A DNA stretch of 64,000 nucleotides from Escherichia coli. Its GTDB lineage: Bacteria > Pseudomonadota > Gammaproteobacteria > Enterobacterales > Enterobacteriaceae. Each line of letters starts with the position of its first letter. The first letter of the stretch is position 1. A program made the translations under genes and the position numbers. The notes beneath the pieces were generated by a model, which saw only the letters and a program-made list of their open reading frames with translations, did no database searches and had not been told where the DNA came from. This document shows positions 26,191 to 26,960 of this stretch, in pieces. The stretch is from the NCBI RefSeq assembly GCF_003790525.1, contig NZ_CP033635.1; one strand, given 5' to 3'.

Positions 26191-26289
26191 GCGTTCATTA
26201 ATTTGATTTATTTGCATCCATCAACGCTTTTAACTGCTCCGGCGTGCGGCACTATAATGGTTTTCACAACAAGGAGCCATTTTCTTATA

Positions 26290-26960
26290 CCACTTTCAGA
26301 GACCATCCGCTTATGCCACCGCCCTCTACGCAACTGTTTGCAGAGCACCTTCCCACCGAGTGGATACAGCACCTCCTGACGCTTTCTGCTCATGCGACCA
26401 TTTGTCGTCTTAACCTGAGCGCGGATGGCGAAGCGGGGATTAGCCTGCTGGCCCGCAGCGCTGTCACCCAGGAGCGCCAGCGCGTGGGGGCCCCCTGGTG
26501 GAATGGCTCTTCCGCCAGACCGCACAGACATGGGGCGCGGAACGTTACCTGAAGGATGACTGGCACGGCCTGCAACTTTTTGCCATTGATGGCGCACAGT
26601 TCAGGACACCTATGAACCTGAGTTGCGCGAATATTATGGCTCTGCCAACACATCCACTGAGCGGCAGAGCGCCTACCCGGTCATGCGTCTGGTGGCGTTA
26701 ATGAATCTGGGAATCACATTCTGCTGAATGCCATGACCTCGGCCTACCGGCGGAGCGATACAGCGTGAGGCAACTAAAGCGGCGTCAGAAATCAGCTTTA
26801 AGTTCGCATTCCAGTTTATCGTGACAGAAATGATAGTGCAGGGAAATACGGCGTCACCAGGAACCATCCCGAAACGGCTGGAGCATCTGCGGGGTGCTCT
26901 GGAAGCGGTGTTCCCACGACTATCAAGGCCGAGGGCTGTTAAGGTATCAAAAACCCGTTA
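26290..26960 (+). pseudogene. Degraded IS4-family transposase remnant (frameshifted fragments)
   Basis: Broken ORFs with IS4-type transposase similarity (FRQTAQTWG...LQLFAIDGAQFRTP compared with the recalled IS4 InsG FTKTAQLWH...LLAIDGVFWRTP); no intact reading frame. Confidence 0.45.

Follow-up and report, generated by a model that had tools for sequence, protein, structure and literature searches.

A decayed IS4-family element of the insZ lineage at the left joint of an OI-172-type defence island in the Escherichia coli nan locus

An anti-phage defence island of the O-island-172 (OI-172) type lies next to nanS in the Escherichia coli DNA analysed here, a 64-kb stretch that we call the window, and broken transposase reading frames occupy its left border. 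This raises the question of whether an insertion sequence (IS) moved the island into the nan locus, or whether the IS only marks the place where the island was joined. IS remnants are commonplace at island borders, and this one is ordinary and already known, as some RefSeq annotations carry it as a frameshifted transposase pseudogene, its family is well described and experiments on the island have been published. By itself the remnant matters little, and its modest worth is as a landmark. Positions 26245-27002 are very probably the non-functional remnant of a single 1430-bp IS4-family element of the insZ/ISZ′ lineage, which would have reached this position by illegitimate joining and now passively marks the left joint of the island.

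Window positions 26191-27163 were 100% identical to positions 4940266-4941238 (minus strand) of the chromosome of E. coli SMS-3-5 (NC_010498.1), a strain named as a carrier of the island (bioRxiv 10.1101/2025.09.22.677730). A term search of the main text of that paper returned no 'transposase', 'insertion sequence' or 'nanS', and the paper seems not to treat the island boundary. The main text of the catalogue of Hochhauser et al. (PMC10121019) does not mention nanS, fimB or leuX. What is mildly new in the present analysis is confined to a nucleotide-level account of the bounds of the OI-172 island. The features around the left border were as follows.

23294-24019, plus strand: nanC
ending at 25145, plus strand: nanM
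25210-26190, plus strand: nanS, with an intact open reading frame (ORF) and its stop codon at 26190
23984-26244, plus strand: left, intact copy of a repeat, comprising the nanC 3′ end, nanM, nanS (ORF intact) and a tail, found by repeat search
26191-26244 (54 nt): native tail after nanS, closing with ~35 nt from the 3′ end of a minus-strand HNH endonuclease gene (alignment and translation)
26245-27002, plus strand: IS4-family remnant (IS4 subgroup, insZ/ISZ′ lineage), aligned by blastn and tblastn to the intact pCPWW7-IncF element
27003-27163: island DNA beside the right end of the IS and upstream of the uracil-DNA-glycosylase (UDG)-family gene, not HNH sequence

The product of nanS matched K-12 NanS at 314 of 327 positions (326 residues and the stop). 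In many RefSeq/PGAP assemblies nanS is annotated as a partial pseudogene ('missing C-terminus', 567 nt) together with a 29-aa hypothetical protein; the ORF in the window is nonetheless full length and 96% identical to K-12 NanS, and the partial-pseudogene call looks like an annotation artefact.

Identity and anatomy of the remnant

The remnant began 54 bp past the nanS stop codon and comprised 758 bp of the original 1430 bp. The initial annotation had described several short, frameshifted ORFs directly after nanS as a degraded IS4-family transposase extending from 26244 to 26960. Four plus-strand ORFs were indeed found within 26244-26994, and the start was about right (26245), but the true end of the remnant lay ~40 bp further on, at 27002. 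The identification was also upheld. With the intact 445-aa relative as query, tblastn returned five collinear segments in frames 2, 1, 3, 2 and 3 with E-values of 6.7e-66 and 1.8e-38, and no further match to the intact transposase was found elsewhere in the 64-kb window. DNA identity to the intact element was 94% over 26406-26761 (356 bp), 87.5% over 26776-27002 and 80% over 26245-26402. Pfam Nterm_IS4 (PF13006) matched the first ORF with E = 1.5e-5 and 25.6 bits (cut-off 25), spanning just profile positions 57-87 of 95, with 29 aa deleted, and NCBIfam NF033592 (IS4 family transposase) matched the second ORF with E = 3e-5, which is under the whole-protein cut-off. PGAP labels the same stretch 'transposase, frameshifted' in several identical genomes, and among 5426 complete E. 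coli genomes searched at the DNA level, loci labelled 'IS4 family transposase' matched the central part of the region at 86-92% identity.

The single profile matches of the fragments are weak (E about 1e-5), as they would be if these were chance ORFs or an annotation artefact and the transposase similarity were spurious. That explanation is refuted by a 356-bp match to an intact IS at 94% nucleotide identity, by the tblastn E-value of 7e-66, by the collinear segments and by the preserved right inverted repeat. The parts of the remnant are listed below.

26244-26552, plus strand: 102-aa ORF fragment, equivalent to transposase aa ~10-104 without aa 45-73; partial N-terminal IS4 domain; tblastn segment 26295-26492
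26498-26701, plus strand: 67-aa ORF
26623-26727, plus strand: 34-aa ORF
26821-26994, plus strand: 57-aa ORF
26486-26762, plus strand: transposase aa 103-195, broken by frameshifts into three pieces (tblastn segments 26486-26611, 26614-26712 and 26709-26762)
26758-26991, plus strand: C-terminal piece, transposase aa 357-445 (tblastn E = 1.8e-38; alignment)
26983-27002, plus strand: right terminal inverted repeat (CCGCTTAAGTG-ACGGCATTG) with a 1-nt deletion (alignment with three full-length copies)

At the DNA level the remnant covered element nt 42-218 (26245-26402, with a 19-bp deletion inside), nt 309-667 (26406-26761), nt 1151-1168 (26757-26774) and nt 1191-1430 (26776-27002). The three frame-shifted pieces were 90%, 100% and 72% identical to the intact protein, in the order listed, and kept the region of the first catalytic Asp (FAIDGAQFRTP). 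Absent were the initial 41 bp, which contain the left inverted repeat, the ~90 bp that encode aa 45-73, and 12 bp close to the C-terminus. A deletion of ~483 bp just upstream of the C-terminal piece had removed aa 196-356, and with them the second Asp and the Glu/YREK motif, and the reading frame was shifted four times. Since the left end, the second Asp and the Glu/YREK motif are all lost, the remnant can neither encode a transposase nor be mobilised in trans.

The ends of the IS were defined by the 10-11-bp target duplications of three full-length copies. A search for terminal inverted repeats, which the initial annotation had proposed, located the right repeat (...CTTAAGTGACGGCATTG), with which the IS terminates at 27002, but found no left repeat anywhere in the window with up to 3 mismatches allowed. 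No target-site duplication was recognisable, the right flank TGTTTCTGACTGG having no partner beside the remnant. A 14-bp inverted repeat (GAAACACAGTGCCG / CGGCATTGTGTTTC) at 26967-27008 spans the transposase stop codon, the right end of the IS and 6 nt of flank; its inner 8 bp are intrinsic to the IS and its outer 6 bp involve the flank. An Rfam scan of 25500-28500 gave a single sub-threshold chance match only.

An intact element of this kind, recovered with the help of tblastn against plasmids, is carried by plasmid pCPWW7-IncF (NZ_CP075717.1, 44413-45842). It is 1430 bp long, has an 11-bp target duplication and ends in CAATGCCGATCAGTTAAGG... and ...CTTAAGTGAACGGCATTG (CAATG...TTA), and its 445-aa ORF (WP_029488891.1) contains Nterm_IS4 (PF13006) and DDE_Tnp_1 (PF01609), scores 263 bits with NF033592 and carries the YHSRWEIEVGFRNLK motif (YREK signature). 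Members of the IS4 subgroup are 1400-1650 bp long, make a direct target duplication of 10-13 bp, have ends of the form -AATR--------WTW- and show a Y-(2)-R-(3)-E-(6)-K signature (De Palmenaer et al. 2008, PMC2266710, Table 1). As its size, ends, duplication length and signature all fit that table, the intact relative belongs to the IS4 subgroup. RefSeq and other sources call the protein just 'IS4 family transposase', and the name of the relative in the K-12 literature is ISZ′/insZ.

Measured against the same properties, the remnant retained homology to IS4-family DDE transposases and an N-terminal IS4 domain (PF13006; tblastn E = 7e-66). Of the DDE triad and YREK in an unbroken frame, just the first Asp region (FAIDGAQ) was left. 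The right terminal repeat was present and the left one absent, while the start of the full-length relatives, CAATGCCGATCAGTTAAGG, fits the subgroup consensus. A 10-13-bp target duplication was absent, the left flank of the remnant having been lost (relatives show 10-11 bp), and the length was 758 of 1430 bp, below the range of 1400-1650 bp. The remnant thus derives from a member of the IS4 family and is not itself a functional member.

The closest known relatives are insZ/ISZ′ of K-12 (b4573), a pseudogene between adhE and tdk that belongs to the same lineage, and the intact copies. The central part of the remnant was 92-95% identical to this group at the nucleotide level, the right inverted repeat was the same, and insZ, too, is an internally deleted, frameshifted chromosomal relic. 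In contrast, insZ lies at another locus, has another set of deletions and retains both inverted repeats and its target duplication, whereas the remnant in the window lacks the left 41 bp and a duplication. IS4 itself (insG in K-12) is of the same family and subgroup, encodes Nterm_IS4 and DDE_Tnp_1, is of similar length (1426 vs 1430 bp) and has an almost identical left end (34 of the first 35 bp), and both IS4 and the insZ-lineage element make 11-13-bp target duplications. However, InsG and the transposase of the intact relative were only 38.7% identical, and beyond the left end there was no useful DNA similarity. The remnant is not a copy of IS4 but of a distinct IS4-subgroup element.

The left joint

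Homology with island-free E. coli (UTI89, A25 and FDAARGOS_144) and with the window's own second nanS tail ended at 26244|26245. IS sequence started exactly at 26245, so that IS nt 42 was joined to the 3′ end of the HNH gene, of which the tail holds the codons for ...PEQLKALMDAN. In the alignment, SMS-3-5 and O157 turned to IS sequence right after ...CTCCGGCG / ...CTGCTCCGGCG (26244), and UTI89, A25 and the right copy in the window (58968-59009) ran on into HNH. These alignments bear out the position at the island's left junction given in the initial annotation. Its suggestion that the IS marks the recombination breakpoint holds insofar as the IS sits at the joint, but the break is inside the IS, at nt 41/42, and not at the IS end.

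Because the chromosome joins IS nt 42 rather than a terminus, and because the DNA on the far side of the IS is island DNA rather than HNH sequence, the joint is the result of illegitimate recombination or deletion and not of transposition. With the breakpoint inside the IS, the remnant marks the joint, and its own transposase did not make it. The island boundary here is therefore neither an att site nor the end of a transposon but an illegitimate joint. A search of the window for a leuX tRNA-derived att repeat, the site of an integrase, gave just chance matches of ≤12 nt.

An 'empty site', in which an uninterrupted nanS is followed by the full HNH gene, was present in 1236 of the 5426 genomes. 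K-12 has an additional deletion, beginning at the position equivalent to 26193, and its arrangement derives from the order nanS-HNH-restriction endonuclease through a different deletion. The possibility that the K-12 pseudogene yjhR is a relic of armD, and that a deletion had cost K-12 the IS remnant, was discarded, since blastn of yjhR against the window gave no similarity. No full-length IS was found on an island flank in the 5426 complete E. coli genomes, as the island-linked copies were all of the truncated type; the best IS coverage in this search, 90%, came from full-length copies at other sites.

The HNH′/IS joint is spanned, at 26230-26258, by a promoter-like site, TTAACT-17-TATAAT (10/12), that points to the remnant and the UDG-family gene; it was recognised as a consensus match only. 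No terminator-like site was found between it and the UDG-family gene.

The island, its right end and a possible route into the nan locus

The island spans 26245-58299 (32 kb). Its membership of the OI-172 type follows from the RefSeq annotation and from gene-by-gene identity of 97-99% with the island of O157:H7. The cargo and the right end were as follows.

27164-58145: island cargo (RefSeq annotation; bioRxiv 10.1101/2025.09.22.677730)
27164-27814, plus strand: UDG-family gene, 161 bp past the remnant
28328-44563, minus strand: ARMADA II, armDCBA
44787-54460, minus strand: Druantia III, druE/druH
54615-58145, plus strand: Zorya II, zorA2/B2/E
58300-59009, plus strand: right, diverged and internally deleted copy of the nan repeat, comprising the 3′ 36 nt of nanC′, the 5′ part of nanM′, the 3′ ~125 nt of nanS′ and the tail; it closes the island
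58972-59613, minus strand: full-length HNH gene, directly after the right copy

Compared with the O157 island, in which a shorter nanM′ fragment is kept, SMS-3-5 adds the UDG-family gene, a longer nanM′-nanS′ duplicate and an intact HNH gene. The right and left nan copies in the window were 84-98% identical, with nanM and nanM′ reaching 98% over 300 bp. The nanS′ piece (58847-58971) was ~75% identical to ordinary E. coli nanS, and the adjoining HNH gene was 98.7% identical to that of an island-free strain, which suggests that a divergent donor supplied the nan duplicate along with the island. The point at which the right copy passes from diverged to native sequence was considered as an equivalent of the left joint; the alignment placed it ~30 nt further left, at the boundary between nanS′ and the HNH gene.

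The exact coincidence of the remnant with the island boundary would also be expected if the IS transposase had brought the island to the nan locus, within a composite or one-ended transposon of which the remnant is a surviving end. IS4-family elements can build composite transposons, Tn10 and Tn5 among them, and in ATCC 8739 the island lies between two IS1 copies, showing that IS-mediated relocation occurs. Against this, the chromosome boundary is within the IS at nt 41/42, where there is no inverted repeat, and the IS has lost the left end that would face outwards; neither the other end of the island nor the rest of the window has a further IS copy or repeat, and a target-site duplication is absent; and the right end is a nanM′-nanS′ duplicate, which points to a homology-based exchange. 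We regard such a transposition as very unlikely.

Together, the remnant and the diverged nanM′-nanS′ duplicate suggest a route by which an island without mobility genes could be installed. In the model that we put forward tentatively, while considering it somewhat less likely to be right than wrong, the truncated IS preserves the one illegitimate joint through which the OI-172 island came into the nan locus. A foreign [IS-island-nanC′-nanM′-nanS′] block would have recombined through homology on the nan/HNH side and through an end-joining-like event in the IS. This would correspond to homology-facilitated illegitimate recombination or to the Campbell-type integration of a circle, and direct nan repeats of 0.7-2.3 kb bracket the block. 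In the account of the remnant itself, which we favour and hold with more confidence than this model, a complete insZ-lineage IS would first have sat at the outer edge of the island block, 161 bp upstream of the UDG-family gene. Illegitimate joining, neither homologous nor driven by a transposase, would then have fused IS nt 42 to a point 35 nt inside the HNH 3′ end, with loss of the left inverted repeat in the same event. The incoming block would have carried its own diverged nanM′-nanS′, so that the other side of the exchange could be homologous. The remnant has since decayed neutrally through four frameshifts and deletions of ~19, 90, 483 and 12 bp, as the strain comparisons described below show. 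Alternatively, the left end may have been trimmed by a later deletion and not in the joining event. The order of these events, and the origin of the joint by recombination of the island block into the nan locus, are what we infer from the two ends of the island; the sequence does not fix the order and offers no intermediate, because all ~441 carriers share the same joint. If the tentative model is true, the locus would be a worked example of the way in which a defence island without an integrase or transposase of its own can be acquired at a core-genome hotspot and may subsequently be lost or moved.

In ATCC 8739 (NZ_CP033020.1, ~4234197-4268311), ARMADA II, Druantia III and Zorya II were found with a nanM′ fragment between two IS1 copies, one of which cuts at the equivalent of window position 27650. 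This block sits in a tRNA-Phe-associated island beside cadC, and it appears to have been carried there from the nan locus as a segment with IS1 at both ends. A search within 6 kb of armD in 13 other species that encode close homologues of ArmD turned up no IS4-like sequence; the IS thus belongs to the E. coli nan-locus version and not to the island as such.

Age of the remnant and other features of the island

The O157:H7 island had the same remnant with the same joint and the same deletions of 19, ~90 and ~483 bp. Between SMS-3-5 and O157 the remnants were 92.5% identical with 7 gap openings, adjacent non-coding stretches were 92-93% identical, and the flanking and island genes were 97-99% identical. 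The ORF layouts of the two remnants differed, as the indels change the frames. The shared deletions, the divergence like that of non-coding DNA and the differing ORF layouts indicate that neutral decay of the remnant was under way before the SMS-3-5 and O157 island lineages split and has continued since. The island is accordingly old and predates the separation of these lineages. Among the 5426 complete E. coli genomes, ~441 carried the remnant, all with the same joint, in agreement with the 426-467 island carriers reported elsewhere (bioRxiv 10.1101/2025.09.22.677730).

The persistence of the remnant in ~441 genomes could also be explained if it had been co-opted, either as a promoter for the UDG-family gene and the genes downstream or as the source of a small DNA-binding protein that uses the N-terminal IS4 domain. 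The promoter-like site at 26230-26258 (10/12), with no terminator-like site before the UDG-family gene, and the 102-aa ORF, which keeps part of Nterm_IS4, are compatible with these two roles. However, the divergence between SMS-3-5 and O157 was at the non-coding level (92.5% vs 97-99% for genes) with 7 frame-changing indels, and the Nterm_IS4 match covered just positions 57-87 of 95. Moreover, the O157 island lacks the UDG-family gene and still has the remnant, its -10 hexamer is TATAAC, and linkage to the island explains the retention. Co-option is in our view very unlikely, if anything slightly more so than movement of the island by the IS transposase, and we retain neutral decay as the reading; to judge from the consensus match, the promoter-like site could still exert some leftover regulatory effect on downstream genes.

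The UDG-family gene encodes 216 aa with a weak Pfam UDG match (E = 0.003). It was found in ~92 genomes and was absent from the O157 island, and Escherichia sp. E1V33 had a 76%-identical stretch of DNA at the equivalent position. A second decayed gene lies at this end of the island, where a 61-aa ORF at 28033-28218 is what remains, at the C-terminal end, of a 421-aa gene found intact beside armD in E1V33. In that strain the armD end of the island adjoins uxuA-uxuB-uxuR directly, with no fim or nan genes between, and the same island thus sits in a differently organised version of this chromosomal region.

Within the cargo, armB (36780-41702, minus strand) was 94-98% identical between SMS-3-5 and O157 at both ends. 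Gene nt ~560-1927 of this ARMADA II methyltransferase (window ~39776-41143) gave one aligned stretch only, at ~70%, and the central part of armB may be a swapped specificity region. Downstream of the HNH gene, 59693-64000 holds more genes of defence type, which encode a phosphorothioated-DNA-binding restriction endonuclease and a JetD-domain protein, and the region distal to nanS is a compound defence hotspot that reaches past the OI-172 block.
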